A program made the translations under genes and the position numbers. Below, in pieces: positions 1 to 23,486 of a stretch of DNA of 64,000 nt. This stretch comes from a virus. Numbering within the stretch: the stretch's first letter is position 1; each line of letters begins with the position of its first letter. The stretch spans positions 10,718-74,717 of IMG/VR virus record IMGVR_UViG_3300008267_000780, one strand, 5' to 3'. The notes beneath the pieces are model-generated. The model saw nothing but the letters and a program-made list of their open reading frames with translations, was not told where the DNA came from and made no database searches.

Positions 1-5
1 TTGAA

Positions 6-242
6 ATGTTAAAAATACTAAAGGAGTCAAAAATCTGTGATGGTATCCATATGTATGAAAATAATCCCGCAGTTGATGTATCCGATAAGGCTTATCAAAC
101 CGAAGTTTGGATTACTTTTTATCCTGAGCAGACCAAAGTTCTTCCGTTATATAAATTTACGGATTTTCTTCAAAACGGGAAAGAAATGGACAGAGGATGG
201 TTTACTAAATCACAATTTTTAAAAAGTGGAGGTACAATATGA
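6..242 (+). CDS. hypothetical protein (may be 5'-truncated); ends in KSGGTI
   Basis: 78-aa ORF coupled by ATGA overlap to the next gene; C-terminal xxGG tag. Confidence 0.6.
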   Translation: MLKILKESKICDGIHMYENNPAVDVSDKAYQTEVWITFYPEQTKVLPLYKFTDFLQNGKEMDRGWFTKSQFLKSGGTI

Positions 243-2987: not shown

Positions 2988-4658
2988 ATGGCTTTATTTG
3001 GTAATTGGTCGGGATATCCTATTGTTGGTTGGTCATTTGATGACCAAGAGAAGTTAATTGAAGCCATTAAAAAATTTAAGGATGATGGTCGTAGCACACC
3101 GACGGCTGCGGACTACGGTCAAAAAGAATATGATGAAGAAATTAGACGTTATAAACGGTTTTTTTATGATACAACCTTCAAAAAAGTTCTTTTTGATTTT
3201 GGTTTAAAATTCCAATTGGGAGGTTCAAAAGATAAATCGCGTATTATAACCACCGATAAACCTCAGGGTATTTTTGATTTTTCTTTGGCCTCAAAAGGCT
3301 TGTATAGGGTACCTGAATATTACTCAGAAAAGTTAGCAAAAGAAAAACCAAATAGGTTTGCTGAGTATGGTACACTCAGTGGTGTTGTGCCACCAAATTT
3401 TGTTCAACAAAGAAGCATTCTTGGTATTCGTCAATTTTACTTTATTGACGAAGACAAAATTGAGTACGTTTGTCAACAATATCAAAAAGGCACTGTTGCA
3501 ATTAAGGACAATGTAAAAGGCGCAAAATTGCAATTTGCAACCACTACAAAAAAAGTTTATTTGAAGTTTAAAAGGGTAGGTGGTAAAGTCAATTATGTTG
3601 AAATTTATTCTTTATTTTATTATACAAGTGTTTATGGAGCAGAGGGTTATGCGTTGAGACATTTACCTGCTATTATGGTTTGTCAATATTTTGAGAGTCT
3701 TGGAATTAAGTGTCGTTTTTATCCGACACGATTTGTTGTTTTTAGTTCAGACCATACCATAAGGGAAAAAGATTTGCTGACTGATGCAACTTTGCCTATG
3801 TATAATATTCGAAATTTTCTGACCGAGCCATATGATTATTTAACGGTACAACCATTTTTGGCAAAAGAATACGGTGAGGAGTTTGACCCCGCAATTGCTT
3901 TAGCAATTTCACAGGAAAGTTCAGGCACAATTTACACCAATGTTATTCAAGAAGCGCAAAAACAAGATTTGGTAGCCGATAACTATCCAACAGGAGGTAA
4001 TCCTGATTGGCAAGAAATTGATTACAGGGTTGGATTTGAGCGTTATAAAAATAAATATCAAGAATATGTCAAGGCAGGTATTTTTAAGGGTAAGGAAGTG
4101 AGACCCGAGGCACAAATACTGTTTCACTCAATGTCAATCAAATATTATCAGGATGTAATTCGTGATACAGCGCGAGATATTTGGGGGTCGCTTCAAATAG
4201 ATGAAATTATTACCCTTTCTCCATATTACGGTAAATTTATTGAATGGTGGATGAATTTTTGTGCAATGAAATTGCGGGATTATGTTCTATTGTTGAATAC
4301 AAAAGAACCACGAAAAGAAATGGAATATATTGCAAAAGAAATGAAAAACTTTTTGAGTGAATATGTTTATTATGTAAATAATAAAAATGTCACTTTTGGG
4401 GATACAGAATTTCGTGATAGGGTAATTTTTCGGTATATGGGGTCTATTTGCAATCAAGAATATTTAACATTAAACGATAATGTAAATAATGGTATTTTGG
4501 AAATTAATCCTGATATAAAAGGATATATAAGTAATTTAATAAACGACGTTGCTATTTATGCTGAAAATGAACCATTTCCTACGCCTGCAGAACAGATTGA
4601 AAAAATGGATTTATTAGCAGAAAATTTATATAATGAATTGGAAAGGGTAAACATATGA
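2988..4658 (+). CDS. putative AAA+ partner, possibly a degenerate vWA/CobT-like protein
   Basis: 556 aa directly after a MoxR-type ATPase; segment AIMVCQYFESLGIKCRFY resembles phage vWA-like partners; no clear MIDAS motif. Confidence 0.45.
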   Translation: MALFGNWSGYPIVGWSFDDQEKLIEAIKKFKDDGRSTPTAADYGQKEYDEEIRRYKRFFYDTTFKKVLFDFGLKFQLGGSKDKSRIITTDKPQGIFDFSLASKGLYRVPEYYSEKLAKEKPNRFAEYGTLSGVVPPNFVQQRSILGIRQFYFIDEDKIEYVCQQYQKGTVAIKDNVKGAKLQFATTTKKVYLKFKRVGGKVNYVEIYSLFYYTSVYGAEGYALRHLPAIMVCQYFESLGIKCRFYPTRFVVFSSDHTIREKDLLTDATLPMYNIRNFLTEPYDYLTVQPFLAKEYGEEFDPAIALAISQESSGTIYTNVIQEAQKQDLVADNYPTGGNPDWQEIDYRVGFERYKNKYQEYVKAGIFKGKEVRPEAQILFHSMSIKYYQDVIRDTARDIWGSLQIDEIITLSPYYGKFIEWWMNFCAMKLRDYVLLLNTKEPRKEMEYIAKEMKNFLSEYVYYVNNKNVTFGDTEFRDRVIFRYMGSICNQEYLTLNDNVNNGILEINPDIKGYISNLINDVAIYAENEPFPTPAEQIEKMDLLAENLYNELERVNI

Positions 4659-6019
4659 AAATAAGTCAAAGCGCGTTCAAAACGCTACAGGAAATACTAA
4701 AAAATTTACAAATTGCAAGCACCAATGGTGCCAAAGTTCAGAACCTTTTGGTTCTACAAAATCCAATTATTCCCGATACTTTTTTCATCAAGTATGACAT
4801 TGAATATATGTCAGCGGGTGAAAGAAAATTCGAGCCAAGGCTTACTCAAGTTGACGATGCGGGTCAGCCGATGGATATTAATGACCAATTTGATAACGTG
4901 TATCAGAGATACGCAAGTCCAAATTGGGGAGCCATCGAATATAAAGATGTTCCATCCTACAGCAAAACAAGTGTAGGGACTACGGGAGATGCGTATATAA
5001 TAAGACAATTTCTCAAACAGTTTTTTCCATTTATAAAAACATCTGTTAATAAATCAAGCCGCTCTGTCAGAGTTAAACTTCAAGAATTTCAGATAAATTT
5101 TATTTGGGAAGAAAATGGTACTCGGAAAAATTTTTTACTTGATGCCAAGCAATTGGACAATATTTTACAGCCCCTATTTGAAGGTCAAGGGTTTGACGGG
5201 ATGACAGATTCGTCTTATACAAAGCCTTTGCCGAAAATGTATAATGATGAGGGTTTTGAAGTGAGTTATGGGTACATATATTTATTTGTTGACCCTGAGA
5301 ATCTTAAAAATACTTACGAAGTAGGACTTGACGATTATACTATAACAAAAAAAGGAGTTCGGTCATATCGCTCTAAAGTGGCAAATGATGGTTCTCAATT
5401 GAGGTTTGAGATGCCTGAAAATACCTTTAATTTCATCAAAGGTTTTGCAGGTGCAAATAGTAATGCATCATCACAGACGACCAATCAAAGTGATTTAGTG
5501 ACTTTGGAAAGAGGTGAAGAAAATCAAAATATGACGGATAACGGAGAATCTTTAACGACTTTGGAACAAGAAATAATTGATTTTTTGGCAGACAAGAATT
5601 TGGGTGTGGAGTTGATTAGAATCCGTAATTTTTTCTTAGAGACTACAAATTATGTCGACAGTGATGTTAATCGTGCGATAAGTGATTTGCTTCAAAAAGA
5701 ATTAATCAATAATAACCAAAGTAGTAATAGTGGATTATTATATATTCTTACTCCAAAAGGTAAATCATATATTACACCAAAACAACCCTCTTTAGATAAT
5801 CAAAATGACCCTGACCAAATCGTATTTGATAGCAAAAATAAAAGTACATTGACAACAGGCGATATTGCTGCGATTGAGTTTATTACACAAAATTATACCA
5901 TTTTAAAAGATATGGAGAAAGAGTCTCCTGAATTATACAATGGTATTTCTGAGGGGTTAAGATTGATAATGAGCCTAACCAAAGACGGCACGGGTCAACT
6001 CGAGCCTTTCAAACCTTAG
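4655..6019 (+). CDS. polyvalent-type protein: LPD29-like domain plus winged HTH
   Basis: IRQFLKQFFPFIKTSV...GFDGMTD resembles LPD29; C-terminal LTTLEQEIIDFL...YILTPKGKSY is wHTH-like. Confidence 0.6.
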   Translation: MKISQSAFKTLQEILKNLQIASTNGAKVQNLLVLQNPIIPDTFFIKYDIEYMSAGERKFEPRLTQVDDAGQPMDINDQFDNVYQRYASPNWGAIEYKDVPSYSKTSVGTTGDAYIIRQFLKQFFPFIKTSVNKSSRSVRVKLQEFQINFIWEENGTRKNFLLDAKQLDNILQPLFEGQGFDGMTDSSYTKPLPKMYNDEGFEVSYGYIYLFVDPENLKNTYEVGLDDYTITKKGVRSYRSKVANDGSQLRFEMPENTFNFIKGFAGANSNASSQTTNQSDLVTLERGEENQNMTDNGESLTTLEQEIIDFLADKNLGVELIRIRNFFLETTNYVDSDVNRAISDLLQKELINNNQSSNSGLLYILTPKGKSYITPKQPSLDNQNDPDQIVFDSKNKSTLTTGDIAAIEFITQNYTILKDMEKESPELYNGISEGLRLIMSLTKDGTGQLEPFKP

Positions 6020-6024
6020 ATGAT

Positions 6025-7419
6025 TTGGAACTCAATGATGACGAATTAGGCGATGTTGATTTGACCGAATTCGATGAATTATCTGATTTTGTTGAGTCTG
6101 AATTAATGCCGAGTCCTTCACAAAATGACCGTCTTTATGCAATCTTGAAAACTGTGGAATTGATGCAGTTGACAGATAAATTAATTATTTCAACCAAGAA
6201 AATATTGGAATCAGTAAATTTCAATAATCAACAAAAGTACACTTTGCAAGAAATAGATGTTTTGGAAGACAACGGTTTTATGGAAAGGTCATCGATTGGT
6301 ATAACTCTTTCAACCAAGGGGCAAGACTTCATAAATGAATATGAATTAAAAAACAAACAAGTTCCCTCATCAATAATTTTAACTTTACCTGTTGATATTG
6401 AAAACTTGGATGCTCTTCAAAAGAATATTTTGATGATTTTGGATAAACCGCCTGCTCAAGGCAAAGGCACATTATATAATGAAATGGACCAATCTGAAAT
6501 ATGGGCAGAAGTCGACGAGACAATTGCAAATGAATATCTCAGAAATGATGTTAAATATGCATTGGATGTTTTGATTGGATTGAAATTGGTGACAGAATTA
6601 AATCACGTACCCGTAGAATATAGGTTGACCGATGATAAAAGAACAAGTGAAATTATAGCAAACATAAAAAATGAATTATCCCCGTTGACTCCAACAGTGG
6701 AAAAAATACTGCGAATTTTATACCGCTTCACGGGTAAATTATCCGCTGATAATATCAAAGATGATTTATCAAATATGAACATTATTCTTCCCCACAAAGC
6801 AATATTTAGTCGTTTAATTGCCTTGCGAGATAGGGGATTAGTTCGAGAAATTAATACATCTTATGGAGGTATTGTGTGGCAAATTACACCGTTAGGTAAC
6901 GAATATGTTGACAAACTACCAAAAGAAAAAACAGGCCGACAAATCAGAGAAGAAGAAAAACAAGCGAAAATTGAAAAAGACTTCGGTTCGCTTGACTATG
7001 ATTTTTACTTGGTTTTAAAAATTTTAAATGACACTATGGGGATGTTAACTGCAGGAACCGTAACAACAATTCTTCAACAGCAATTTAATAAAAAACCAAA
7101 GTGGGATGAATTTGCTGTTCTCTCCAAACTTCGTGGATTATTGTCGATGGGATTGGCTTTAGAAGATATTCAAAATTCAACTGAATATTTTGAAATCAGT
7201 GATTATGGAGAAGACGTTTTTAAATATTTGAGCGAACAGGAAAGCAAAGGATTATATCCAAAATCAAAACCAACAGAACAGACTGTTGCTGTGCGTCCAT
7301 CACCGACGGAAAGTGCAACCCTTAATTCTGTTGGGACCATTAAAAAAGGTAACGATGGAAACAATTGGGAAGTCAAAGAGAGTTCCAAAGGTGTAAAGCG
7401 TTGGGTAAAAATTAAATAA
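6025..7419 (+). CDS. multi-winged-helix protein with C-terminal RPSPTESAT..KKGNDGNNW..KRW motif; possibly the frameshifted continuation of the upstream ORF
   Basis: 3-4 wHTH-like repeats (ITLSTKG, YRLTDD, WQITPLG, FEISDYG); only a TTG start. Confidence 0.65.
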   Translation: MELNDDELGDVDLTEFDELSDFVESELMPSPSQNDRLYAILKTVELMQLTDKLIISTKKILESVNFNNQQKYTLQEIDVLEDNGFMERSSIGITLSTKGQDFINEYELKNKQVPSSIILTLPVDIENLDALQKNILMILDKPPAQGKGTLYNEMDQSEIWAEVDETIANEYLRNDVKYALDVLIGLKLVTELNHVPVEYRLTDDKRTSEIIANIKNELSPLTPTVEKILRILYRFTGKLSADNIKDDLSNMNIILPHKAIFSRLIALRDRGLVREINTSYGGIVWQITPLGNEYVDKLPKEKTGRQIREEEKQAKIEKDFGSLDYDFYLVLKILNDTMGMLTAGTVTTILQQQFNKKPKWDEFAVLSKLRGLLSMGLALEDIQNSTEYFEISDYGEDVFKYLSEQESKGLYPKSKPTEQTVAVRPSPTESATLNSVGTIKKGNDGNNWEVKESSKGVKRWVKIK

Positions 7420-7438: not shown

Positions 7439-10400
7439 ATGAATAATCAAGCAAAAATTAAACTTGAGAAAATAAAGAAACTGAAACTCCCTGAAAAAGT
7501 TAGGGCTACAGCGGACAAAATCGAACAAGGTTTGTCAAGTGCAGACGCGGCTACTCAAAAGAAGGCTGAAGATGCATTGAATAAACTTTATACGCAAATT
7601 AAAGCAGTCGCGGCCAAACAGCGTGAAGAAAAAACGGAAAAAGAAGTCAATGAAAAGACGATTGTTCCGCAGAATTCAGACATCGCGGCTCCTGAAGCCA
7701 AAAAAGAGTTGACAAAAAAAACGACTGTTGCAGATGACGTAATAGACAAGGCATTAAAAAACGACCCTGAACTTGCGGGATTTGGACGCTCTGATAAGCG
7801 TAGAGACGCAGGTAGAAAGGCTCTTCCCGCAGGAAGGCGTGTTGCACGAAAAGGATGGTCCAATCAGTTTGGTAAGTCGGACGGTGGTCGCGTTTATTAT
7901 GAAAACCGTGAAAATCGTAAAGACCGTAAAAGCCCTTCATACAAGTCAGGATACCCATACTTGGCAAAAGGGGGTAAAATTCACCCTATGGATGACGAAG
8001 ACGGAACTTTTTATGTAAACCTTTACAAAACCAAAGGAGACCAAATGATGTCAGTTGATGAGCGCGAATACAGTTCTAAAGCATCCGCTATGACCTACGC
8101 GATGATGAAGCGCGACTTTATGAAAGAGGGTGAAAGCATATTCGTGATGAATGATGACGGTGATGTGTTATACACATCTATAGGCACAAAAAAGATGGCT
8201 ATGGGTGGTAAATTCCCTTATCAAAACGCTCAAGTTGGTGACAGTGCTCGAGTTATTCTTGACAACAAAATGGGAACCATTATGGTCACATATGGTCGTC
8301 GTTTCCATTTAAAGTTTCCTGATGGTACGGAAAAGACTTATTCGGCTGAAGAATTGGAATTTTATCCTGATGATAATGTGATGGCCAAAGGTGGTGAATT
8401 GAAAAAAGGCGATAAAATTGTCGTGCTTGGTACGGAATTTGAATTTGTACGATATGAAATGGATTCAAGCCAAGGATATGACGAAGAACGTGTAATATTG
8501 AAAAATGAAAATGGTATTCGCTCTTATCCTAAAGATATGGTCGAAGCATATTCCCAATACGAAATGGCCAAAGGCGGCTATATGGCGAAAGGTGGTTCCG
8601 TATTAAAACCAATAAAAATTTTAATAAAAAACCTTGACGGCAAAATTGTGTATACAACTACAAGTAGTAACAAAGCCGCAGATTACTTAGTCCTTCACGA
8701 TAGAGATAATTTGACTGTAGAAACTGAAGATGGCGAAGTAATATTCGCAAATGGTCAATATATGGCCGATGGTGGATATATTCCGTATGATGGGGCAATG
8801 AATTCGTTTAGAGATTTTCAAGTTTATGTAAAACAACGAATTTCAGAATATCCTGAATTGAAGGAAGAAATTTTGGAGTTTTATTATCTTGCACAAAGTG
8901 AAATTGAAGAAGGGGGCTCTACGTATAGTGAAATAAGTAGAGGTTTTGAGGATATTGAAGACATAATTCGAGAACAAAAAATGGCCAAAGGTGGCTATAT
9001 GGCTGAGGGAGAAAACTATGAGTATGTAAATACGTTCAAGCGTTTTGATAGCAATGTGCCCGTTCCTGATGAGGATTTTAAAAAATTGGTGGATGCTTAT
9101 CACAAACAACTTTCGGGTGATAAACTTGCCGTTTCCAAGTATAAGGTTTTGAAACTTCAAATGGGCAACTATTTGGGTCATAAAACAGTTGAAGAAATGG
9201 AAGCGTACATTGAAAAAACCCACAATGCTCACAAAATGGCCAAAGGTGGCTATGTTGATATCGAAGCAAAATTAATCAAAGAATTGCAAAAATTACAACG
9301 CGATTTAAATAGCAACAGATTAAATACCTATAGAGAAGGAGATAATTCTGATGCCGAAAAGGCTCGACAGAGAGAGCGCGAATCTAAACTTGTTAGGTTC
9401 AATGAAATTTTAGAATTGCTTCGTGAAAACGACGCGAAGAAAATGGCCAAAGGTGGTACAATTAACAAACTCAAAGCCGATTCATACGCTTACGGTTTTA
9501 TGGAAGATTTTGATAAAACGAGAAGGATTGTCAAGATGAATTTTGGGGATGATACAAGAAAAGAATTTGAAAAAATAGTAAAGTCTAAGTTCTCTAAACA
9601 CAAAGTATTTGAAGATGGTGGCTATATGGCTGATGGTGGGGCAATCAAGGGGTCAAATCCATCAACGGGTGAAAAATTTGGGGTGGTAATAGGCTCATTA
9701 AAAAAAGAAGATGGACTTACAACTTTGACAATTCGGAGTAGTTATTCAGCAAGAATCAAATCGTATGAATTAACTTTTGATGAAAAAGGATTTTTAAGGT
9801 CGATTGGGGATTTTGGTCATACTATTGATGGAACTTACCCTGATATGAAGGGTGGTCATTTAAGTGTAAAAAATGTCGATGCTGACAACAAAAAAGAAAG
9901 TATAGACGCACTTGCCAAAATAACAAGCCCATCTTTTGCCAAAAAAGTTTATGATTATGTACAAGAAGAAAAAATGGCAAAAGGTGGACCAACGGGCGAT
10001 TACACCAATAGAAGGGACTTGAAATTAATCGTTATTAAAAACCCCAATAAGAGCGGGTCAAAGGATTATTTAACAATTGATAAAAAGGATTTCCTTGACG
10101 GGTTGCACAAATTTGAAGGTGGTGGTAGTTTGTCGAAAGGCTACACCTACATCAAAAGAGCCGATGTTAATCAAGTTGCCTATTACGATAAGAATGGCAA
10201 GACACAAATTGAGTTCAAACCTAAGAATGGATTTTGGGTGAGCAAAAAAGCACTTGTGGATGCGGGGATGAACGAAAGTAAAGCCGAACCTAAAAAGACA
10301 AGTTTAAATTTTGGCACTACATCAATGCGTAAAACATCAAGTGGTTGGATTGCCAAAAACAAGGTTTCTAATTATAAGGGTTACGATTGGGAAATCACTA

Positions 10401-11206
10401 CGATGAAGAGTATGCGTGGCGATTTGGTTAGTACCGCAGTCGGTGGGAAAAATGAAAAAAGTGGTAGTGGGTACACGATGTTTACCTATGTTATGTACCA
10501 AGACCCGAATGTTCGTTTGATAACATCAAAGCCATCAAGAATTACCGAAAAGGTTACTTTGGAACAACAAGAGAAAGCATTAAAAGAGTTTGAAACCAAG
10601 GTTACGGATAAATGGTATGCCGATGGTGGTAAAATTGGCTTTGAAGCCCTTTCCAAAAAAGTAGCGTCGCGATACGCAGGTAAAAAAGTTCAGCCCAAAT
10701 ATCAAGGCGAATATGGAAAGACTTACGATAAGGCTGAAGCAAAGGAAGTTGGCGACAAAGTAGCGGCAAAAGTTTATCGTATGCAGCAAGGTAAAATGGC
10801 TATGGGTGGTAAAATTGAACTTCCTTACGAATTAGACAAATATTTTACCAAGCCTGCAGGGACAATTGAAGTGGAAATGAGTAAGTTAATTCCTATTCGT
10901 GCACGAAAGGAAGGTATTGAAAATGCAGAAGTGTATATGAAGAAGGCTTACGATGGTAAAATGTCCAAGCGTAAACCTATTGAAATTTACAAAACGCGCA
11001 ATAAAAAATATCGCGTGAACGATGGTAACAGTACCTATGCTGTGGCTAAAAAGAATGGTTGGGAAACTATTTATGCAACTGTAGTTTCCAATCCTAATGT
11101 CTCAAAACGTGCCGAAAAAAGTACATTTGCAATAGCAAAAGAAATCAGAAAAGAAGGCGAAAAATGGAGTGATGCTGTAAAAAGAGTAAAGGAAAACAGA
11201 AAATGA
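7439..11206 (+). CDS. 1255-aa modular protein with about 15 [MFYL]xxGG linkers and a C-terminal ParB/Srx-like module
   Basis: repeated MAKGG/MADGG/MAMGG/FEDGG/YADGG; PIEIY..YRVNDGNSTYAVAKKNGW is ParB-like. Confidence 0.85.
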   Translation: MNNQAKIKLEKIKKLKLPEKVRATADKIEQGLSSADAATQKKAEDALNKLYTQIKAVAAKQREEKTEKEVNEKTIVPQNSDIAAPEAKKELTKKTTVADDVIDKALKNDPELAGFGRSDKRRDAGRKALPAGRRVARKGWSNQFGKSDGGRVYYENRENRKDRKSPSYKSGYPYLAKGGKIHPMDDEDGTFYVNLYKTKGDQMMSVDEREYSSKASAMTYAMMKRDFMKEGESIFVMNDDGDVLYTSIGTKKMAMGGKFPYQNAQVGDSARVILDNKMGTIMVTYGRRFHLKFPDGTEKTYSAEELEFYPDDNVMAKGGELKKGDKIVVLGTEFEFVRYEMDSSQGYDEERVILKNENGIRSYPKDMVEAYSQYEMAKGGYMAKGGSVLKPIKILIKNLDGKIVYTTTSSNKAADYLVLHDRDNLTVETEDGEVIFANGQYMADGGYIPYDGAMNSFRDFQVYVKQRISEYPELKEEILEFYYLAQSEIEEGGSTYSEISRGFEDIEDIIREQKMAKGGYMAEGENYEYVNTFKRFDSNVPVPDEDFKKLVDAYHKQLSGDKLAVSKYKVLKLQMGNYLGHKTVEEMEAYIEKTHNAHKMAKGGYVDIEAKLIKELQKLQRDLNSNRLNTYREGDNSDAEKARQRERESKLVRFNEILELLRENDAKKMAKGGTINKLKADSYAYGFMEDFDKTRRIVKMNFGDDTRKEFEKIVKSKFSKHKVFEDGGYMADGGAIKGSNPSTGEKFGVVIGSLKKEDGLTTLTIRSSYSARIKSYELTFDEKGFLRSIGDFGHTIDGTYPDMKGGHLSVKNVDADNKKESIDALAKITSPSFAKKVYDYVQEEKMAKGGPTGDYTNRRDLKLIVIKNPNKSGSKDYLTIDKKDFLDGLHKFEGGGSLSKGYTYIKRADVNQVAYYDKNGKTQIEFKPKNGFWVSKKALVDAGMNESKAEPKKTSLNFGTTSMRKTSSGWIAKNKVSNYKGYDWEITTMKSMRGDLVSTAVGGKNEKSGSGYTMFTYVMYQDPNVRLITSKPSRITEKVTLEQQEKALKEFETKVTDKWYADGGKIGFEALSKKVASRYAGKKVQPKYQGEYGKTYDKAEAKEVGDKVAAKVYRMQQGKMAMGGKIELPYELDKYFTKPAGTIEVEMSKLIPIRARKEGIENAEVYMKKAYDGKMSKRKPIEIYKTRNKKYRVNDGNSTYAVAKKNGWETIYATVVSNPNVSKRAEKSTFAIAKEIRKEGEKWSDAVKRVKENRK

Positions 11207-12318
11207 AACTATTAAAATTAACCAAACAGGAAGTTGCAAAACTTCAAAAGCAATACAAATTTGGGTCTGATTTATCCAAGCAAGACGTAGTAGTCAAAAT
11301 ATTTAACCCTTATGGTAGGGGAAGATGGTATTTGGTAAATCAAGACCCTAAGGACCCTGATTACATTTGGGCGATTGTAGATTTAGGGATGGGACCTGAA
11401 GTTGGCTCAGTGAGTTTGAGCGAACTGCAGAACCTGCGAATGCCTGTATATGGGTATAAATTCCCGTTGGAAAAAGACAGATTTACACAACGAAATGCTG
11501 TCGAAGTTTTTGAAGGATTGCAGCGCGGCAATTATTTTGCAGATGGTGGAGAAATCAAAGTAGAAGTTGCTCAAAAAGACATTTACAACAAAAATCATTA
11601 CAAAGGTATATTCCAAGATTCCGACAAAGACGGTGTTCCTGACATTGATGATGCACAACCGAAAAATCCAAAATTACAGGGAGAGGTTGAAGAGTTGAAG
11701 TTCTCTCAAGTGTTTGATAGGCTAATAAAAACGAAAAGGTCTTTGGACAAAATTATGAGGGCGGCTATCTCAAAACTCAAGGTGATTTCCCCTGTAGGAA
11801 GTACGATTTATGCTCGAACCAAAACGCCTTATTCCATAATCAACAAATTGATTAATAAAAAGTCTACGAGCCTTGAAAGAAGCAAATTGGGTGATGTTGA
11901 AGGTTTGACGGATTTAATTGGAACCACAGTAGTTGTCAAAAATTTGAGTGGTATCGAACAGGTATCAAAAGAATTAGACAAAGGCGCATTGGGTGAAATA
12001 TTGGAAAAAAAAGATTATTACGAAAACCCAAAAGCGGGTTATCGTGCAATTCACTACATCACCATTTTTGAGGGTGTTGCTATTGAAGTGCAATTGAAAA
12101 CTTATCGTCAAAAAGAAATCAATGAGGCCTCTCACCAAGCGTACAAATACGAAAATCTTGAAGCGGACCGTTTGTTGTATTTGACCAATTTGGCGAATGA
12201 GGCTGATATGGGAGACCGAAAAGCCCAAATAGAAATTGACAAAATTTTCCTCGATAAAAAAGCCTTAAAGGAATCTTTGTACAAAGACAAAGTCAGAGGA
12301 AATAAATTACCTTCGTAA
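11203..12318 (+). CDS. DUF2958-like domain + FADGG linker + RelA/SpoT (small alarmone synthetase-like) domain
   Basis: KIFNPYGRGRWY..VDLGMGPEVGSVSLSEL; DSDKDGVPDIDD Ca-binding-like loop; RTKTPYSIINK, DLIG, KDYYENPKAGYRAIH, EVQLKT. Confidence 0.8.
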   Translation: MKLLKLTKQEVAKLQKQYKFGSDLSKQDVVVKIFNPYGRGRWYLVNQDPKDPDYIWAIVDLGMGPEVGSVSLSELQNLRMPVYGYKFPLEKDRFTQRNAVEVFEGLQRGNYFADGGEIKVEVAQKDIYNKNHYKGIFQDSDKDGVPDIDDAQPKNPKLQGEVEELKFSQVFDRLIKTKRSLDKIMRAAISKLKVISPVGSTIYARTKTPYSIINKLINKKSTSLERSKLGDVEGLTDLIGTTVVVKNLSGIEQVSKELDKGALGEILEKKDYYENPKAGYRAIHYITIFEGVAIEVQLKTYRQKEINEASHQAYKYENLEADRLLYLTNLANEADMGDRKAQIEIDKIFLDKKALKESLYKDKVRGNKLPS

Positions 12319-12332: not shown

Positions 12333-12764
12333 ATGAAAAATATAACCACTATCCTACAGGAGAAAAATGTGAAAGTCGACACTTTGCCCGACAACATTCA
12401 AAGTGCAATTGAAAATTCAATGAACCTTTTCGAAGACATTCAAACTTTAGAAGACACGTTGACTGAAGAGTCTACAGATGAAGAAAAAGCAGAATTCAAC
12501 GAATTAAAGGAAACCCACGAAGATTTTAACGAACAGATTCTTGGGGCAATTGACAATTTTCAAGAAGAACTTGAAGCAAAGAAAAAAGCCCAAAATAATG
12601 CAAGTCCTGCGCCTGCGCCTGCGCCTGAACCAAAACCTGCAACACCTCCATCATCAAATCCCGAACCCAAAAAAAAAGGAATTGGATTTGGTACTTTCAT
12701 TATCGGAGCGGCAGTTTTGATTGTAACTGCAGGTGCTGTTAATATGATGAGAAATAAGAACTAA
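12333..12764 (+). CDS. tail-anchored membrane protein (acidic coil, PA linker, C-terminal TM)
   Basis: GIGFGTFIIGAAVLIVTAGAV hydrophobic C-terminus. Confidence 0.8.
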   Translation: MKNITTILQEKNVKVDTLPDNIQSAIENSMNLFEDIQTLEDTLTEESTDEEKAEFNELKETHEDFNEQILGAIDNFQEELEAKKKAQNNASPAPAPAPEPKPATPPSSNPEPKKKGIGFGTFIIGAAVLIVTAGAVNMMRNKN

Positions 12765-12973
12765 TGGAAAAAATACCCCAACACTATTTTGCGTTTAATC
12801 CACAGTCTGTCCGTTGGATGGATATGGTGTTTGTTGCACCTATTATGATTTATGCGGGTGTGAAGGGGGATTTTAAACCATATGTGAAATTTTCACTCAT
12901 CGCGATTGGCTCTTTGACTTTTCTTTACAACGGCATTAATTATGTAACCAATTTGCAAAACGGAGAAAAATGA
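12764..12973 (+). CDS. small 2-TM membrane protein
   Basis: two hydrophobic segments; TAATG coupling. Confidence 0.7.
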   Translation: MEKIPQHYFAFNPQSVRWMDMVFVAPIMIYAGVKGDFKPYVKFSLIAIGSLTFLYNGINYVTNLQNGEK

Positions 12974-13263
12974 GTTACCGTATTACAAGATACACTTTTG
13001 AACAGGCTAAAAAATTGGGGGTGACTGTAAAGCCGTCCACAGTTCAAGGCAAAAAGATTGATGTATTCAAGAACGGAACGAAATTGGCCTCAGTTGGTGC
13101 TATAGGGTACAATGATTATCCAACATTTATGCGATTGGAGCGCGAGGGAAAGGTTCCTTCAGGAACAGCGAATTTGCGTCGGAAAGCATATAAAATCAGA
13201 CATCAAAAAGACAGAACCGTCCGTGGAAGTAATGGATGGTACGCTGACAAATTATTATGGTAA
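12970..13263 (+). CDS. Tlr6F/DUF5754-like basic protein
   Basis: KKIDVF..VGAIGYNDYP..RRKAYKIRH..GWYADKLLW pattern. Confidence 0.65.
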   Translation: MSYRITRYTFEQAKKLGVTVKPSTVQGKKIDVFKNGTKLASVGAIGYNDYPTFMRLEREGKVPSGTANLRRKAYKIRHQKDRTVRGSNGWYADKLLW

Positions 13264-13415
13264 TGGACAAGAAATTAAAAGTAGTAATCGTGGCCTCAGT
13301 AGGTATTGCTGCAATATTGATTGGAGTGTCTTTGCTCTTTATTCAAAGGGGTATTGACCGAAAAGCAATTACAGAAGAAGACCGAAATGTTTTAAGACAA
13401 ATTCGAATTTCATAA
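13263..13415 (+). CDS. 50-aa membrane protein (not in the ORF track)
   Basis: MDKKLKVVIVASVGIAAILIGVSLLFIQRG...; TAATG coupling. Confidence 0.7.
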   Translation: MDKKLKVVIVASVGIAAILIGVSLLFIQRGIDRKAITEEDRNVLRQIRIS

Positions 13416-13417
13416 TT

Positions 13418-14143
13418 ATGGAAATCAAGATACCTGCAATTCAAAAGGAGTGGAAAGTCCCTGCAAATCAACCACCTTGGAAAAGTCAAGCAACGGCTGT
13501 GATAAAAAAAATCAAGGCGAATTATAGTGGGCAAATGGCAAAAGCATCGCAATACACAGGGGTTCCTGTGAATATTTTGGTAGCGTTTGCCGCCACAGAA
13601 AGTGGAGGCGCGTTGAATCAAACTTTAAATGGTCCATCCAAAGGAATTATGCAAGTAAACCCTTCTTCGGCTTGGCAAGCACTATCTGACCAAATCAAAG
13701 TCGATACGATAGGTAGATTCTACCCCCTTTACCAATTGGCCCCTAATGCATTCGTGGTGAAAAAACCCGTTGCTACAAACTCAGTAGGAAAGGCTACGGA
13801 TTATTTGACCTTGAAACCTGTAACTACAGCGTCCGCATATCTTGGGCAAAGAATGGTCGCTGATGCGCAATTTGCTATTTATATGGGTTCGTTGTTATTG
13901 GCACAGTTAATAGCGGGTACAATCGCTAAAACAGGCCAAATCAGACTTGACCACATCATCATTAAATACAATGCGGGTACGGGACGATTCAGGCAGGTGG
14001 TAACGAGCAGAGGTTTGGAAAGCGCGAGTGTGGACACAACACAGTTGTATAATCAGTTACCAATTCCTGTTTCTCAAGCGTACATCGTCAAAATGATGGG
14101 AATAAATGGCTATTTAGATGTTCAAAAACAGGGTTTGGCGTAA
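13418..14143 (+). CDS. lytic transglycosylase (SLT-like), probably virion-associated
   Basis: AATESGG catalytic Glu, GIMQV, YNAG motifs. Confidence 0.8.
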   Translation: MEIKIPAIQKEWKVPANQPPWKSQATAVIKKIKANYSGQMAKASQYTGVPVNILVAFAATESGGALNQTLNGPSKGIMQVNPSSAWQALSDQIKVDTIGRFYPLYQLAPNAFVVKKPVATNSVGKATDYLTLKPVTTASAYLGQRMVADAQFAIYMGSLLLAQLIAGTIAKTGQIRLDHIIIKYNAGTGRFRQVVTSRGLESASVDTTQLYNQLPIPVSQAYIVKMMGINGYLDVQKQGLA

Positions 14144-14179
14144 ATAATATGACGGCATTGAACTGTAGAAAAAACTCAC

Positions 14180-14187
14180 TATTTTTG
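14180..14187 (+). promoter_or_regulatory. Bacteroidota -7 promoter element TATTTTTG
   Basis: matches TAnnTTTG in an intergenic gap before a gene run. Confidence 0.55.
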
Positions 14188-14213
14188 TTTTAATCAATTA
14201 ACTACATAATACT

Positions 14214-14333
14214 ATGGCAAATACTAAATCAGGATTCGTACCAATGGCTGTTGGGATTGCATTGTCTCTTGCAACAATTTATGTTATCGCATACTTTGCA
14301 GGCAAGGGATGGGAGAAAGCAACCGATAAGTAA
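14214..14333 (+). CDS. 39-aa membrane protein (not in the ORF track)
   Basis: MANTKSGFVPMAVGIALSLATIYVIAYFAGKGWEKATDK. Confidence 0.7.
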   Translation: MANTKSGFVPMAVGIALSLATIYVIAYFAGKGWEKATDK

Positions 14334-14335
14334 TT

Positions 14336-14830
14336 GTGAAAGGAATTTTCAAAGAAATATTGGATGCGACCCAAGGTCCGCACGCAAATGGAGTTCTCTA
14401 CGCAGGGGCTGTAGGACTTTTATTGTCCAATATTATTCCAACCCCCGCAGATGCTTTATATTTCCATCGTGAGAAAAAACTCAAGGAGAAATGGGACAAT
14501 AAAGAAATCACACCCGAAAAATATTGGCAAAAAACTGCAACCGCCTATTACGTGTATAAACCCGTATGGTGGGGACTTGTAATTAGTGCAATGTATTTTA
14601 CCAAAGGCGATGTCAAGGACAAAGCGAAGATAGGTTTGATGATTGTAGGAGCAGGAGCCGTAGTAGGGATAGTTTACAGAAATTACACAAAAGACATTCA
14701 AGATGTTCGTCGAGAAGTTTTGACTTCTATGGAGCCAAAGAAAAACATTACAGGTCCAAATAAGCCTGTGAAAGTTGGTCAATACAGGTCAGTTCTTCGA
14801 AAAGGAAACGTCTTAAAGTTTGTCGCTTAA
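14336..14830 (+). CDS. multi-TM membrane protein
   Basis: GTG start; three hydrophobic segments. Confidence 0.75.
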   Translation: MKGIFKEILDATQGPHANGVLYAGAVGLLLSNIIPTPADALYFHREKKLKEKWDNKEITPEKYWQKTATAYYVYKPVWWGLVISAMYFTKGDVKDKAKIGLMIVGAGAVVGIVYRNYTKDIQDVRREVLTSMEPKKNITGPNKPVKVGQYRSVLRKGNVLKFVA

Positions 14831-14840
14831 TAAAAAAGAA

Positions 14841-15194
14841 ATGGAAAATTTAACAGGAGCACCCGCAGCAGCCGCAGCACCCGCTGCCCCCGCAGCCCCC
14901 GCTGCACCCGCAGCACCTGCAGCACCCGTAATGGCGCAAGGTGGTAGTGTAGCAGATGCCGCACCGAAAATGGTAGAGGGTGGCGACGTTTCATCAATAG
15001 AAACCAATTGGGGAACTTGGATTGCAATTGGCTTGGTGTCACTTACGCTTGTTTCATTGATTTTACAGATTGCTGTACATCGCAAAAATTTAAAGAAAGT
15101 CGATGCAGACGATGAAGCATTGCAAAAAGATGTCAGGGAACTGAAAATGAATGTGAAAAAACAAATGGGCGAAAAGTATGAAACCTTGGCTTGA
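14841..15194 (+). CDS. membrane protein with (AAP)n linker and MAQGG/MVEGG motifs
   Basis: ATG at 14841; TM WIAIGLVSLTLVSLILQIAV. Confidence 0.75.
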   Translation: MENLTGAPAAAAAPAAPAAPAAPAAPAAPVMAQGGSVADAAPKMVEGGDVSSIETNWGTWIAIGLVSLTLVSLILQIAVHRKNLKKVDADDEALQKDVRELKMNVKKQMGEKYETLA

Positions 15195-15825
15195 CGAAGT
15201 CACGTATGGCAACCCAAATGATGAATTACTTCCCTATTTAGAAAAAGGGGAGTTTGATTTCGTATTCGAAGCACTCAAAAAATTCCCACCGCCTAAAAAT
15301 TCTTCGGAAACTACGCGGGATGAAATGAGAGAACTTATTTCGATTCAGAACTCTCCTGAGCAAAAAAACGAAGAAATTATGTCACGGTATTTGAACTATG
15401 ACAAAAATTTCGGAGATGTATTCAAAACTTATTGCAAAGACACAATAGGGGAAAATATGGATGACGTAATCGACCAAATTACAAAAGATGGTTTTTACGT
15501 CCTGACAAAATTAAAATTCTTTTACCAAAGGCCGCGTCCCTATCAGTTGGCACAATATTTAAGGGCGCGTCTTTTTCCTTATGCTGCAGCCACCGCTTTG
15601 ACACCTGCATATCCTTCAGGACACTCGTTTGAGTCATATGCTTTGGCAGAATATATTGGAAGTAAGTATCCCGAACATTATCAGTTTTTGACTGATTTAT
15701 CACACGATATATCAATTAGTCGATTATTTCTTGGATTGCATTTTGCCACTGATTTAGATTTTGGCAGATTTGCGGCTAAGAAATATGTAGGCTCAAAGCA
15801 ATTTGCAAGTAAATATGGAATATGA
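15178..15825 (+). CDS. PAP2/haloperoxidase-superfamily phosphatase
   Basis: KFFYQRPRP, YPSGHS and SRLFLGLHFATD motifs 1-3. Confidence 0.85.
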   Translation: MKPWLDEVTYGNPNDELLPYLEKGEFDFVFEALKKFPPPKNSSETTRDEMRELISIQNSPEQKNEEIMSRYLNYDKNFGDVFKTYCKDTIGENMDDVIDQITKDGFYVLTKLKFFYQRPRPYQLAQYLRARLFPYAAATALTPAYPSGHSFESYALAEYIGSKYPEHYQFLTDLSHDISISRLFLGLHFATDLDFGRFAAKKYVGSKQFASKYGI

Positions 15826-16228
15826 ATTTCTCGTAACACCAATCGGCAAGCCGAGAATGACCCAACGGGACAAGTGGTTAAATCCACCCCGTAAACCAAT
15901 ATTGAATTACAGAATTGCAAAACACGGTATTCAACATTATGCCTGTGAACAAAATTTTACTTTGCCCGAAATAATTAATGTTATTTTTGTTTTACCTGTT
16001 TCAGAATCTTGGAGCAATAAGAAAAAAACATCAATGATTGGGCAGCCACATCGCCAAAAACCCGATTTGGATAATATCCTCAAATTTTTGATGGATAGCC
16101 TTCTCCCAAACGGAGGTGATGAAGTTGTGCATACCATAAACGCCCGTAAAATTTGGGGTGAACACGGTAAAATATTAATTGAAACAAAAAATGACTCGAC
16201 AACGGAAAATCGAAACGAAGCCAATTGA
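15815..16228 (+). CDS. rusA: RusA-like Holliday junction resolvase
   Basis: PIGKPRMT and KPDLDNILKFLMDSL..DE motifs. Confidence 0.8.
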   Translation: MEYEFLVTPIGKPRMTQRDKWLNPPRKPILNYRIAKHGIQHYACEQNFTLPEIINVIFVLPVSESWSNKKKTSMIGQPHRQKPDLDNILKFLMDSLLPNGGDEVVHTINARKIWGEHGKILIETKNDSTTENRNEAN

Positions 16229-16625
16229 ACAATTATTCTCGGCATTGAGTGAGACGCTCAATGAAATTGGGTATATGCGAACCATTCACCTACTGAGAAA
16301 AGGTCAAGAAAACGTATGGAATTCAGACTTGAAAGTTGCTACTGATGCAGTTTGCAAGGTATTTAATATTTCTCCCGATGTGGTATTTGGTAAATCAAGA
16401 AAATATCCCCGAAAATATGCTTTCGCTATTTGGGTTTATTTATCGTACACCAAATTAAATTACACGCTCCCCGATTTAGTGAACTATACCCATAAGTCTT
16501 TGTCGACAATCAGCAAGGCTAAAGGCAGTATCGATAATCGAAAAAGCGTCACCGCATTTGAAAAGAAAATTAACGAAAAACTTGATGAATGCATACAAAT
16601 CATAAATGAAATCAAACCCGAATAA
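16191..16625 (+). CDS. DnaA domain-IV-like HTH protein
   Basis: VCKVFNISPDVVFGKSR..AIWVYL..TLPDL..HKSLSTI pattern. Confidence 0.6.
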   Translation: MTRQRKIETKPIEQLFSALSETLNEIGYMRTIHLLRKGQENVWNSDLKVATDAVCKVFNISPDVVFGKSRKYPRKYAFAIWVYLSYTKLNYTLPDLVNYTHKSLSTISKAKGSIDNRKSVTAFEKKINEKLDECIQIINEIKPE

Positions 16626-16627
16626 TT

Positions 16628-17602
16628 ATGGAAAATACAGAAAATGTGAATTCAGAAATCATTGATGATTTCTCCCCGCTTACTCAGGACAATGTAATCC
16701 AACGTGATTATACAAAACCAAATGTTGACTTCTCTCAAGTCAATGCAACCCCTATTGAAGAACCTGTATTCGTAGCCCCCTCTTTTGAGGATATGGATGC
16801 TAATTGGAATTCCAAAAATGTCGAAGAAGCACAAATTGTAGATGAAAAAGCAAGTGCTAATCCATATACAGAAAATCTTGACAAGAAAGACCAAAGAAAA
16901 GCATCAGCCGCATTGGTTGAAGCCCTTTTGGATGGATACACTCAATTGAACAAATTTGGGAATAAACTCGTTCAATTCAATCCTGAAAAAATACAGGGAA
17001 TGATGCGCTCAGGGGAAATAGACCCTGATTTGACCATTCCAATTAACGGTAGAAATATCGGAGTTCTTGATTATGTGAATGCATACAATGAAGAAACTTC
17101 CTCAGTTATTTCCGTTGATGATGACTTCAAAGACAAGGTACGTCCATTGTTAATTGAAGAGTTTATGGAGCGCAACATCGGGATGACCCGATTGCAATTG
17201 ATTGGATATTATTTTGGAACTGATTTATTGACTAAGGGAACCTTGGTTTATTCATTGAGGAAACAGAATCAAGCAGTATTGGATTCTTTGGTGGAAATTA
17301 GTCAAAATAACCGTCCCGCTCCAACACCTCAGGCAAGTCGTGTGCAACAGTCAGAACCAATTAGAGAAGAGGAACCTGTGAGAAAATCACAACGTGAATT
17401 CGTAGAGCCTGAAGAGGAATACGCAGTTGTCGAAGAGTTTGAACCCGTGACGGTAGTAAAAACTGCCAATGACGATGTTAGTCGCTCAAGAAGACCACAG
17501 GCAGGACCTAAGTTTGGTGACTCTGCAATTTTGGAGCAAATGGAACAAATCGCAAATGGTGAGCCTTCAGGTAAGCGTAGAGGTAGACCAAGGAAAAAAT
17601 AA
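16628..17602 (+). CDS. acidic hypothetical protein preceding the packaging ATPase
   Basis: 324-aa ORF; C-terminal KRRGRPRKK (AT-hook-like). Confidence 0.75.
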   Translation: MENTENVNSEIIDDFSPLTQDNVIQRDYTKPNVDFSQVNATPIEEPVFVAPSFEDMDANWNSKNVEEAQIVDEKASANPYTENLDKKDQRKASAALVEALLDGYTQLNKFGNKLVQFNPEKIQGMMRSGEIDPDLTIPINGRNIGVLDYVNAYNEETSSVISVDDDFKDKVRPLLIEEFMERNIGMTRLQLIGYYFGTDLLTKGTLVYSLRKQNQAVLDSLVEISQNNRPAPTPQASRVQQSEPIREEEPVRKSQREFVEPEEEYAVVEEFEPVTVVKTANDDVSRSRRPQAGPKFGDSAILEQMEQIANGEPSGKRRGRPRKK

Positions 17603-17610
17603 TATCAAAT

Positions 17611-18432: not shown

Positions 18433-18465
18433 GTTACTTTAAGTCTACTATGTAATCAATAAGCG

Positions 18466-18492
18466 AACCCCCTTTAAAACAGGGGGTTTTTT
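18466..18492 (+). terminator. rho-independent terminator
   Basis: aaccccct/agggggtt stem followed by a T-run. Confidence 0.8.
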
Positions 18493-18570
18493 ATTTTAAA
18501 TACTTGTAAATTACTATGCAAAATATATTTTAGGGAATACTTAATAGTTAATAGTCCATTTTATCCAAGG

Positions 18571-18578
18571 TATTTTTG
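18571..18578 (+). promoter_or_regulatory. Bacteroidota -7 promoter TATTTTTG for the capsid unit
   Basis: TAnnTTTG after the terminator, upstream of 18619/18773. Confidence 0.6.
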
Positions 18579-18618
18579 AAACTGTAAGCAGTCTGAACGG
18601 CTTATCAAACAAAAACTT

Positions 18619-22493: not shown

Positions 22494-22704
22494 CACTCAA
22501 ATAAAGCGCATACTGATTGCAGGGGGATTTTTCTTCCTGCTTTTGCGTTTTCGGGGATATTTAAATCCCGCGAAAGAAACTTTGTCTGCTAAAGACGAAT
22601 CTTTATCAGCGAGTGGTACGAAAACCGTTATTGATAGGGCGATTGACAAAATTAGAAGTGGCGGGGTAAAAGTTGCAAGCACTCCATCTGAAATAACAAA
22701 CTGA
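22480..22704 (+). CDS. membrane protein
   Basis: GTG at 22480; TM ILIAGGFFFLLL. Confidence 0.65.
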   Translation: MKLNNTQIKRILIAGGFFFLLLRFRGYLNPAKETLSAKDESLSASGTKTVIDRAIDKIRSGGVKVASTPSEITN

Positions 22705-23486
22705 TGAAAGAAGAAAGAATTGCTACCAAATATGCTCCCGTTACGCTTTGTGTGGTTTTGAAAACAGAGTTCCCTACCAAACTCAATTTGGTAGTGTTCG
22801 ATGCAAAAAACCCCAAAAGGAAATTCACTGAGCGTTACAAAACTGTTACAGGCGAAGAAACCCTGTATGTTCGAATGCCGTTGTCTCCTGATAACGCTGT
22901 CGTTCAAGTTTTTTCGCACGGTGGAATTGCAAAAAAGAATGACCCAAACTTCAGTATTGTAAGGGTTTACAAAAAAGGTTTGGAGCGTCGGTTTGATTTG
23001 AATGATATTGGGAATCCCCAAATACGCTCATTCGTCAAATTCGCGCAGAAATTTTGTTTTAATGTGAGTGAGTTGGAGCCCGAAGAAACTTATCGAAGTG
23101 ATGACGGTGAATACTTTATTCAGTTGAAGCAACAGATAAAAGATGCAAACGGAAAAGTGTTGGGTACGCCCGCACGTATTGGCCGTAGAACAGGTGTTAT
23201 TCAAGTGAGTAAAACCCAATTTGAGGCCTTTACAATTCCTATGCGTATGGCAATTTTGCTACACGAATTTTCCCATTTTTACTTGAATGAAAAAATGGAT
23301 GATGAAATGGAGGCAGACTTAAATGGATTGTTGATTTACCTTGGTCTTGGATATCCAAGAATTGAGGCTTATCAAGCGTTCCTCGAAACATTCAAAAATG
23401 CACCAAGCAATTTGAATAAGAAACGCTACGATATGATTAATAACTTCATCAACAATTTTGAGAAAATGGACATTGTAATAAAATAA
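22704..23486 (+). CDS. zincin metalloprotease (HExxH), candidate virion maturation protease
   Basis: AILLHEFSHFY followed by EMEAD third-ligand motif. Confidence 0.7.
   Translation: MKEERIATKYAPVTLCVVLKTEFPTKLNLVVFDAKNPKRKFTERYKTVTGEETLYVRMPLSPDNAVVQVFSHGGIAKKNDPNFSIVRVYKKGLERRFDLNDIGNPQIRSFVKFAQKFCFNVSELEPEETYRSDDGEYFIQLKQQIKDANGKVLGTPARIGRRTGVIQVSKTQFEAFTIPMRMAILLHEFSHFYLNEKMDDEMEADLNGLLIYLGLGYPRIEAYQAFLETFKNAPSNLNKKRYDMINNFINNFEKMDIVIK

Follow-up and report, generated by a model that had tools for sequence, protein, structure and literature searches.

A seven-residue diglycine seam marks the exchangeable joints of a viral polyvalent effector array

We analyzed a 64,000-nucleotide window of viral DNA (positions 10,718 to 74,717 of IMG/VR record IMGVR_UViG_3300008267_000780), and in particular a gene termed P0001 (7439..11206, plus strand), an open reading frame (ORF) with a translation of 1255 amino acids. 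In its architecture of many unrelated domains, mosaic among orthologues, P0001 is firmly placed among the polyvalent effector arrays defined by Iyer, Burroughs, Anand, de Souza and Aravind 2017 (PMC5512222). Equally firm is the finding that a short diglycine-centered peptide recurring along the array, which we call the seam, joins interchangeable units: in relatives and in co-occurring strains, entire cassettes have been swapped, lost or rearranged at this peptide without a change of frame. Sequence comparisons further establish, also firmly, that selection acts on the seam peptide itself, and does so in several unrelated protein settings. The array begins with a conserved N-terminal region, continues through approximately 13 small cassettes of 46-168 amino acids, each predicted to fold independently, to a module with a ParB/sulfiredoxin (ParB/Srx) fold, and ends in a conserved C-terminal helical tail.

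The pattern [MFYLW][AE].GG matches the P0001 ORF 15 times, compared with a mean of 0.25 and a maximum of 4 matches when its sequence was shuffled 2000 times. The hydrophobic residues of these matches begin at nucleotides 7961, 8195, 8381, 8564, 8582, 8762, 8981, 9236, 9443, 9608, 9626, 9974, 10112, 10616 and 10796. An initial annotation of this DNA had listed 15 GG motifs at these positions, and each of them is in frame at its coordinate. The same annotation had proposed modules of roughly 45-170 amino acids, in good agreement with the 46-179 amino acids that we measure between seams, besides two tandem seams spaced by 6. Five further GG dipeptides in P0001 do not belong to seams: those in KSDGG (residue 149), IEEGG (489), DMKGG (805) and AVGG (1002), and the overlap within EGGG.

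A search of 5.8 billion proteins yielded 460 homologues of P0001, all of them unnamed metagenomic proteins carrying approximately 3-22 motifs each. Statistics were drawn from 923 unique junctions in 120 homologues, and these define the seam as seven residues, [M/F/Y]-[A/E]-x-G-G-x-[I/M/V/L/T]. Position -4 is M, F or Y, with the aliphatic residues I and V depleted; Met is enriched 17.7-fold there, and Lys is enriched before it. Position -3 is A or E and position -2 is mostly K, D or H. After the two glycines, position +2 is nearly confined to I, M, V, L and T, and this constraint constitutes an independent result because +2 was absent from the search pattern. Proline is found once among the 923 junctions at +1 and never at +2, compared with a background frequency of 2.7%. 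The motif as initially defined lacked the two residues past GG and overlooked the placements at C-termini and in a membrane protein that are described below.

At the nucleotide level, synonymous codons vary, such that all four Ala and all four Gly codons are in use. Nonetheless, there is a bias toward ATG-GCC-AAA-GGT-GG: among Ala codons, 7 of the 13 in seams are GCC versus 14 of 76 elsewhere (p=0.011), and GGT encodes the first Gly in 13 of 15 seams versus 32 of 76 cases elsewhere (p=0.002). Tandem double seams number 159 among the proteins collected; a DNA pattern for them had no match in IMG/VR, although that pattern was too strict. Seams at junctions whose neighbors never change are among the most conserved columns of the P0001 alignment (A1), and they do not vary even in sequences with as little as 27% overall identity. 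We considered self-cleavage at Asp-Gly or Asn-Gly and rejected it, as Lys is about as common as Asp before GG.

An AlphaFold2 model of residues 56-1255 of P0001, computed from a 48-sequence alignment, has a mean predicted local distance difference test score (pLDDT) of 60.5. Every one of the 15 seams is in a segment whose pLDDT is below 50; these segments, some of them just 4-7 residues long, separate confidently folded modules. The modules between seams are predicted to be small beta or helical folds, at least 12 of which fold separately, whereas the non-seam dipeptide in IEEGG is located inside a confidently folded helical module. This model agrees with the earlier view of P0001 as a polyprotein of small modules, in that it depicts independent folds joined by flexible, motif-bearing linkers. 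The median module is approximately 76 amino acids long and almost none matches a Pfam family; P0001 as a whole has no Pfam match above threshold.

To compare the arrays of different viruses, the 120 homologues were cut at the motif, the resulting pieces were clustered, and cassettes were compared by their left and right neighbors. The clusters have tight lengths (for example, 59-60, 66-66 and 30-30 amino acids) and occur in many orders between a constant head and a constant tail. One cassette has 28 different left neighbors and 21 different right neighbors. Where two proteins have just the left cassette in common, their identity drops at the seam from ∼0.4 to ∼0.1 directly past GG, and pairs sharing only the right cassette give the mirror image. 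Because the clustering relied on cuts that we had made ourselves, ungapped BLAST segments were also analyzed in full-length proteins without imposed cuts, and their ends are approximately 3-fold enriched within 5 residues of GG. Homologues therefore gain, lose and reorder modules exactly at the motif, the pattern that the initial annotation had suggested looking for.

Exchange at the seam is also evident within natural populations. The gene is present in 20 sequencing runs from 16 studies, annotated as freshwater, lake-water or ‘fungus’ metagenomes. Contigs of four runs reveal two in-frame seam-to-seam joints, one of which rests on just 23 matching letters at the shorter of its sides; the contig method does not exclude additional sequence between the two sides of a joint. 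The joint 9238->10625 skips 462 codons, and the joint 9462->9988 skips 175 codons and is seen in two runs, where its depth is similar to that of the full-length path. Seam windows make up 6.9% of the stretch and contain all four ends of the two joints, along with 6 of the 22 listed loose ends of contigs. Another four loose ends part from the sequence shortly ahead of seam 3 and lead into different seams and cassettes; contigs of three runs diverge at 8363-8370, ahead of this seam, into others such as MMADGG and MVKGG. The collapse of identity at the seam, together with the in-frame joints in contigs, leads us to conclude that modules are exchanged at this site.

The individual elements of the array, all on the plus strand, differ in the evidence that marks them. 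The N-terminal region (residues 1-179; 7439..7975) comprises a helix followed by a basic, mostly disordered stretch, with pLDDT below 50 across most of its length. It heads approximately 94 of the 120 homologues and contributes many nearly invariant columns to alignment A1. Seam 1 (LAKGG-KI, 7961..7981), in a segment with pLDDT below 50, and seam 2 (MAMGG-KF, 8195..8215) both have a GG that is nearly invariant in A1, and a contig loose end falls at 7976 within the former. Seam 2 is otherwise identified by its motif and its location in a modeled linker, and this is also true of seam 3 (MAKGG-EL, 8381..8401), the tandem seams 4 and 5 (MAKGG-YMAKGG-SV, 8564..8602, with a loose end at 8596), seam 6 (MADGG-YI, 8762..8782), seam 7 (MAKGG-YM, 8981..9001, with a loose end and contig boundary at 8981) and seam 13 (FEGGG-SL, 10112..10132). 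In one run, seam 13 carries base changes at 10112, 10114 and 10119, and hand translation of this variant gives MEDGG.

Seam 8 (MAKGG-YV, 9236..9256) holds one end of the joint 9238->10625 and a loose end at 9249, and the other end of this joint is in seam 14 (YADGG-KI, 10616..10636), whose Ala and both Gly residues are invariant in all 48 sequences of A1. The joint 9462->9988, observed in the two runs noted above, links seam 9 (MAKGG-TI, 9443..9463) to seam 12 (MAKGG-PT, 9974..9994), the latter being the sole case of Pro right after GG among the 923 junctions. Loose ends occur at 9615 in two runs within the tandem seams 10 and 11 (FEDGG-YMADGG-AI, 9608..9646). Seam 15 (MAMGG-KI, 10796..10816) has an M and a GG that hardly vary in A1. 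Within the 90%-identity cluster of P0001, the members P0140 and P0146 are identical to it where aligned and have internal deletions of 72 and 28 residues, respectively. Both deletions begin at residue 889, just before seam 13 (region 10103-10320), and neither takes out a complete cassette; they could reflect true variation or errors of assembly.

The last module (residues 1125-1255; 10811..11203, plus strand) consists of the ParB/Srx fold followed by a C-terminal helical hairpin (AKEIRKEGEKWSDAVKRV). It had been labeled ParB-like from sequence inspection, and Foldseek supports this label with matches to Noc, ParB and sulfiredoxin at a probability of 1.0 and E ∼4e-3. The ddrB-ParB model finds no match, despite the ParB/Srx fold detected by Foldseek (E 4.5e-3). 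The 25-residue helical tail after the ParB/Srx module holds 7 of the 11 invariant columns of A1 and is the most conserved stretch of the family. Main array genes of related loci keep this tail even when they have no ParB module.

Besides P0001, just three ORFs of this genome carry a canonical seam. One is P0002 (371 amino acids; 11203..12318, plus strand), whose start overlaps the stop of P0001. Its seam, FADGG-EI (11536-11556, plus strand), had been described as separating a DUF2958-like from a RelA/SpoT region. Pfam matches bear this out, with FADGG at residues 111-115 between DUF2958 (residues 6-93, E 1.7e-13) and RelA_SpoT (residues 205-317, E 8e-16). In some homologues of P0001, DUF2958 is fused into the array itself.

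The second, P0148, is the first gene of the cluster and encodes 835 amino acids; its 3′ end occupies 1..242 of the window on the plus strand, and the whole gene is at L001:8452-10959. Two seams are located close to the P0148 N-terminus, and the protein further comprises tandem winged helices and a C-terminal domain that resembles ADP-ribosyltransferases (ARTs). A further seam, FLKSGG-TI-stop (216-242, plus strand), forms its extreme C-terminus. Among 34 relatives of P0148, 31 end in GG-x-[ILV]-stop, and two of the other three look truncated. More distant relatives end in LEVGGIIF, FEKGGKI, FDLGGIL or FDFGGTL. AlphaFold2 predicts the C-terminal tail to be disordered beside a confident C-terminal domain, and this domain shares 45% identity with a protein whose Pfam score for ART-PolyVal is marginally below threshold. 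It is possible that P0148 is an Alt-like ADP-ribosyltransferase; Alt of phage T4 is an ART that is packaged, trimmed and injected. The tandem winged helices at residues 155-325 give a VIA Z of ∼12 to MarR/PadR folds, and they fill the match lists when the P0148 model is used in fold searches, leaving its C-terminal domain with no fold match. Profile and PDB sequence searches with P0148 and with the 444- and 556-amino-acid neighbors gave nothing usable, and an Atlas look-up provided a weak DUF7192 lead for the 556-amino-acid protein. A 347-amino-acid ORF in the recombination/replication region (57334-58377, minus strand) also ends in FKRGG-TI-stop, with a two-residue cap like that of P0148.

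The third is a single-pass membrane protein of 117 amino acids (14841..15194, plus strand) that is composed of an Ala/Pro-rich N-terminus, the seam VMAQGG-SV, a weaker MVEGG-DV, a transmembrane helix and a basic helix. Nearly all of its 17 divergent orthologues keep a seam-like motif before the transmembrane helix even though the flanks have diverged. The seam is not restricted to uncultured viruses. In the cultured Phocaeicola phage BM127P2, a tape-measure-like protein holds the small ‘HSQGG’ module of P0148 between the seams FAKGG-QV and YAEGG-QV. This protein (L035:3907-6405; OP172695.1 12253-14751) has 832 amino acids with coiled-coil and transmembrane segments, and its module ‘HSQGG...EGGE’ spans approximately 65 amino acids; all genes in the record are annotated as hypothetical. 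Both seams occur in the tape-measure-like protein of the cultured Phocaeicola phages BM127P1-4 (OP172694-OP172697). In addition, some called proteins begin with MAKGG or MADGG. The conservation of the seam at a C-terminus, in a membrane protein and in a tape-measure-like protein suggests that it is a recognized peptide and not merely a hinge.

The polyvalent setting that had been proposed for this gene cluster is supported by the ParB/Srx fold in P0001, the adjacent RelA/SpoT domain, and the Zeta toxin, DUF2958 and ART-like domains in relatives or neighbors; Zeta_toxin and DUF2958 were both found in homologues of P0001. As in the polyvalent proteins defined by Iyer et al. 2017 (PMC5512222), many unrelated small domains share one viral polypeptide. 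The ParB/Srx, RelA/SpoT, ART and kinase-type effectors and the uncharacterized domains of that class have probable counterparts here, partly located in neighbors or homologues. Orthologues are extensively mosaic in both cases, and in both the proteins are predicted to enter the host and to be processed into units. However, the text of PMC5512222 does not contain the words linker, glycine, diglycine or GG motif, and hence describes no junction peptide. The modules of P0001 are also unusually small, and almost none is represented in Pfam. Moreover, the enzyme proposed to process polyvalent proteins, the MPTase zincin, resides within the polypeptide, whereas it has no match in this genome (PF18818, E<=1). 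The MPTase zincin is common in polyvalent proteins but not universal.

Our preferred reading, which we put forward tentatively and at somewhat less than an even chance, is that the seam serves for cleavage (processing). A protease acting at its GG or beside it, whether in the maturing particle or once the proteins have reached the host, would split the array and the adjacent DUF2958-RelA/SpoT protein into separate small effectors. The peptide would presumably be read by a viral or host factor, with a conserved HExxH protein encoded at 22704-23486 as the sole candidate for the enzyme. A protease site would explain why the peptide is present at every joint, including those that are never shuffled, why Pro is excluded around the presumed scissile bond, and why domains with unrelated targets are strung together. 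Processing into units has been predicted for polyvalent proteins on the grounds that their domains have unrelated targets (Iyer et al. 2017, PMC5512222). Cleavage at the seam, like any biochemical role of the peptide, is something that we infer from sequence patterns. The initial annotation had proposed a cargo polyprotein that is cut at GG or packaged by means of this motif; the modular polyvalent array holds up, and cleavage or motif-based packaging is putative.

Several observations weigh against processing. A seam at the very C-terminus followed by two residues leaves little for cleavage to release, and this is likewise the case for proteins that start with MAKGG or MADGG; both placements fit docking at least as well. 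The seam was not found in the candidate capsid-region proteins of this genome; the protease codes of T4 and phiKZ occur in capsid proteins. Given the codon bias, part of the conservation of the seam may derive from common descent or from homogenization by recombination. Finally, hidden Markov models (HMMs) for C39, C48, C5, S78, S77, ClpP, MPTase-PolyVal, RadC and Prok-JAB have no match in this genome, and the tie between the HExxH protein, the only protease candidate found, and the seam is purely putative.

These observations bring into play a possible, though on balance unlikely, alternative in which the seam is an uncut docking or addressing handle. It would bind a pocket on a particle component or delivery machine, and thereby load its bearers or pass them through an entry channel. 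The bearers would be the array, P0148, the small membrane protein and the tape measure proteins of other phages, and the array would stay whole, with its many seams a by-product of cassettes that travel with their own copy. This arrangement best explains complete seams at C-termini and N-termini: exactly two residues follow GG in the 31 of 34 P0148 relatives and a complete seam also closes the distant ones, the terminal tail of P0148 is modeled as disordered, and some called proteins begin with a seam, even if such starts could stem from erroneous gene calls on fragments. Encapsulin cargo is likewise loaded through short C-terminal peptides. The preferences at -4 (M/F/Y) and +2 (I/M/V/L/T) differ, as would those of two distinct pockets, and the seam is limited to the effector cluster and one membrane protein rather than being found genome-wide. 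Its occurrence in a tape-measure-like protein is also consistent with docking, since tape measure proteins are delivered whole in known phages, as is the lack of a detected protease. Conversely, the handle has no known binding partner, and one tag per protein would suffice, yet every joint has a seam even where its neighbors are unchanging. The unrelated targets of the effectors also favor release, by the argument of Iyer et al. 2017.

We consider it distinctly unlikely that the seam is a hinge and recombination joint without any reader. Under this explanation the DNA, often AAA ATG GCC AAA GGT GG, would supply a short homology for in-frame exchange, and the residues would persist through common descent and as a harmless linker. 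Breakpoints inside the seam, a codon bias beyond what the amino acids need, tandem double seams that resemble scars of out-of-register exchange, and the location of seams in low-confidence linkers are all consistent with such a role. However, synonymous codons vary to the point that every Ala and Gly codon is used, and -4 and +2 are tightly restricted even though different codons encode them. The seam moreover persists at a C-terminus, with nothing beyond it to hinge, and in a membrane protein despite divergence on either side of it; at never-shuffled junctions it is invariant down to 27% overall identity. It is far less probable still that ribosomes begin at seams by virtue of the A-rich AAA-ATG-GCC-AAA context and thus produce nested shorter products. 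The 17.7-fold enrichment of Met at -4 with Lys before it, the A-rich codons preceding ATG, and called proteins that start with MAKGG might be taken to indicate internal starts. Yet 4 of the 15 seams in P0001 have F, Y or L in place of Met, and F and Y dominate in more distant lineages, where M is rare. Internal initiation would also give nested C-terminal products rather than separate modules, and would leave both GG-x-hydrophobic and the C-terminal seams unexplained.

Returning to the processing site that we prefer, several known proteolytic systems offer partial parallels. Clan CE proteases cleave after Gly-Gly in polyproteins of large DNA viruses, as exemplified by adenain and by African swine fever virus (ASFV) pS273R acting on pp220 and pp62; Ulp/SENP enzymes and polyubiquitin represent the same type of GG-X processing. 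The short cap that ubiquitin-like precursors carry after GG resembles the ends seen here, in which GG is followed by two residues and a stop. Nevertheless, the comparison with adenain, ASFV and Ulp proteases that had been drawn earlier does not hold well. The adenain consensus has M/I/L at P4 and G-G at P2-P1, whereas the register of the seam differs, with its hydrophobic residue at P5, Ala or Glu at P4, and I and V depleted. The modules of P0001 are also not ubiquitin-like repeats, and no C5 or C48 match was detected in six related genomes, which is a weak negative. The prohead-protease codes of T4 gp21 and of phiKZ/SPN3US are similar to the seam in that a short motif recurs across proteins with several sites per protein, and these motifs recur in several packaged or ejected proteins. 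However, the T4 and phiKZ motifs end in Glu, mark the major capsid protein and have a known protease, whereas the seam is GG-centered, is absent from candidate capsid-region genes and is accompanied by no S77/S78 match. The double-glycine leaders cut by C39 peptidases have hydrophobic residues at -4, -7 and -12; in contrast, Ala occupies -4 in the seam, and hydrophobic residues do not recur periodically upstream of it.

Other parallels concern delivery. Tape measure proteins with embedded modules resemble the array in carrying small functional modules, and the BM127P2 protein brackets one such module with the same seam. The tape measure protein of mycobacteriophage TM4 reportedly includes small functional modules in a protein that reaches the host envelope. 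P0001 differs in having no long coiled coil or tape-measure features, and the virus may have no tail. Encapsulin cargo-loading peptides, which address cargo to the inside of a protein shell, are similar in mode of action only: they are short Gly-and-hydrophobic peptides, often at the extreme C-terminus. They have no sequence relationship to the seam, which is mostly internal and is repeated up to approximately 20 times.

Searches for a processing enzyme gave few leads. The protease HMMs listed above also found no match where run on five relatives, three of which are rated 100% complete. Across the six related genomes there is no match to PF00770 or PF02902 (clan CE), to PF03420, PF04586 or PF00574 (S77/S78/ClpP), or to PF03412 (C39), all of these results being weak negatives. 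These protease searches are uninformative because the Terminase_6N and HK97 capsid models likewise match nothing in the six genomes of this lineage. The candidate zinc metalloprotease (260 amino acids; 22704..23486, plus strand) is distinguished by a HEFSH and a DDExEAD motif, both of which are invariant in six related genomes at 52-95% identity. Its Pfam matches, to M56, M48 and PhageMetallopep, are all below threshold, and profile and PDB sequence searches with the family gave nothing usable. RadC-type JAB cassettes were evaluated as a general seam protease and rejected, as they occur in 2 of 81 short homologues and are absent from this genome and five relatives.

A bolder proposal, which we regard as improbable, takes the seam as the cleavage code for a maturation protease of a kind not yet described, for which the HExxH protein might qualify; the virus itself would be a large one of Bacteroidota that contains a membrane and possibly has no tail. 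If so, this virus would use a polyprotein strategy like that of ASFV and adenovirus, such that one gene would encode a swappable set of approximately 14 mini-effectors cut at GG. The same code would trim the membrane protein and expose a GG C-terminus on the ART-like protein.

Full-text searches for the pentapeptides found nothing relevant, and as far as we searched, no paper describes the seam motif. To the earlier picture of GG-punctuated modules our analysis adds a seven-residue definition, the terminal and membrane-protein contexts, joints at the population level, and a cultured phage for testing cleavage. Polyvalent proteins are regarded as the earliest weapons that a virus brings into a newly infected bacterium, and the seam provides a concrete, mutable handle on how their domains are assembled, exchanged and possibly separated. 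It defines the boundaries of hundreds of uncharacterized mini-domains that could be used for functional screening, and suggests a natural system for in-frame module shuffling. Whether polyvalent proteins are cut becomes directly testable, including in the cultured Phocaeicola phage with its seam-bearing tape-measure-like protein.

Thirty related IMG/VR loci share the gene order found here, some of them with three array genes or with split arrays. A tblastn search with P0001 found no relatives in cultured phages, and a similar search against plasmids matched only the ParB-like end, in Ensifer; no relatives are encoded in GTDB genomes. The virus is an uncultured freshwater virus that probably infects Bacteroidota, and may not be a tailed phage.

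Additional features were noted around the array. A MoxR-type AAA_5 ATPase (1579-2982, plus strand; E 2.6e-10) is conserved between the two seam-bearing genes in most of the related loci that reach this far upstream. Genes at 239-1573 and 2988-4658 also belong to the conserved part of the cluster. Immediately upstream of P0001, ORFs at 4655-6019 and 6025-7419 (plus strand; 454 and 464 amino acids) correspond to a single ORF of 969-1036 amino acids in close relatives (L002, L003), reflecting either a gene split here or a sequencing/assembly break at 4655-7419. The first of these ORFs has a weak LPD29 match. Downstream, the region 12333-27262 encodes many small transmembrane proteins, an SLT transglycosylase (13418-14143) and a PAP2 phosphatase (15178-15825), together with candidate capsid proteins of 324 (16628-17602) and 232 (18773-19471) amino acids and a 273-amino-acid P-loop protein (17611-18432) that weakly resembles HerA/FtsK ATPases. 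One complete relative has inverted terminal repeats.

Farther along the window, an ORF of 4183 amino acids (35206-47757, plus strand) is made up almost entirely of collagen-like G-S-S and G-T-S triplets (Ser 38%, Gly 30%) and ends in a Peptidase_S74 endosialidase-chaperone domain (E 5e-16). Its G+C content is ∼54%, compared with ∼38% for the genome. A tRNA-Met (CAT) gene is located at 63143-63215 on the plus strand.

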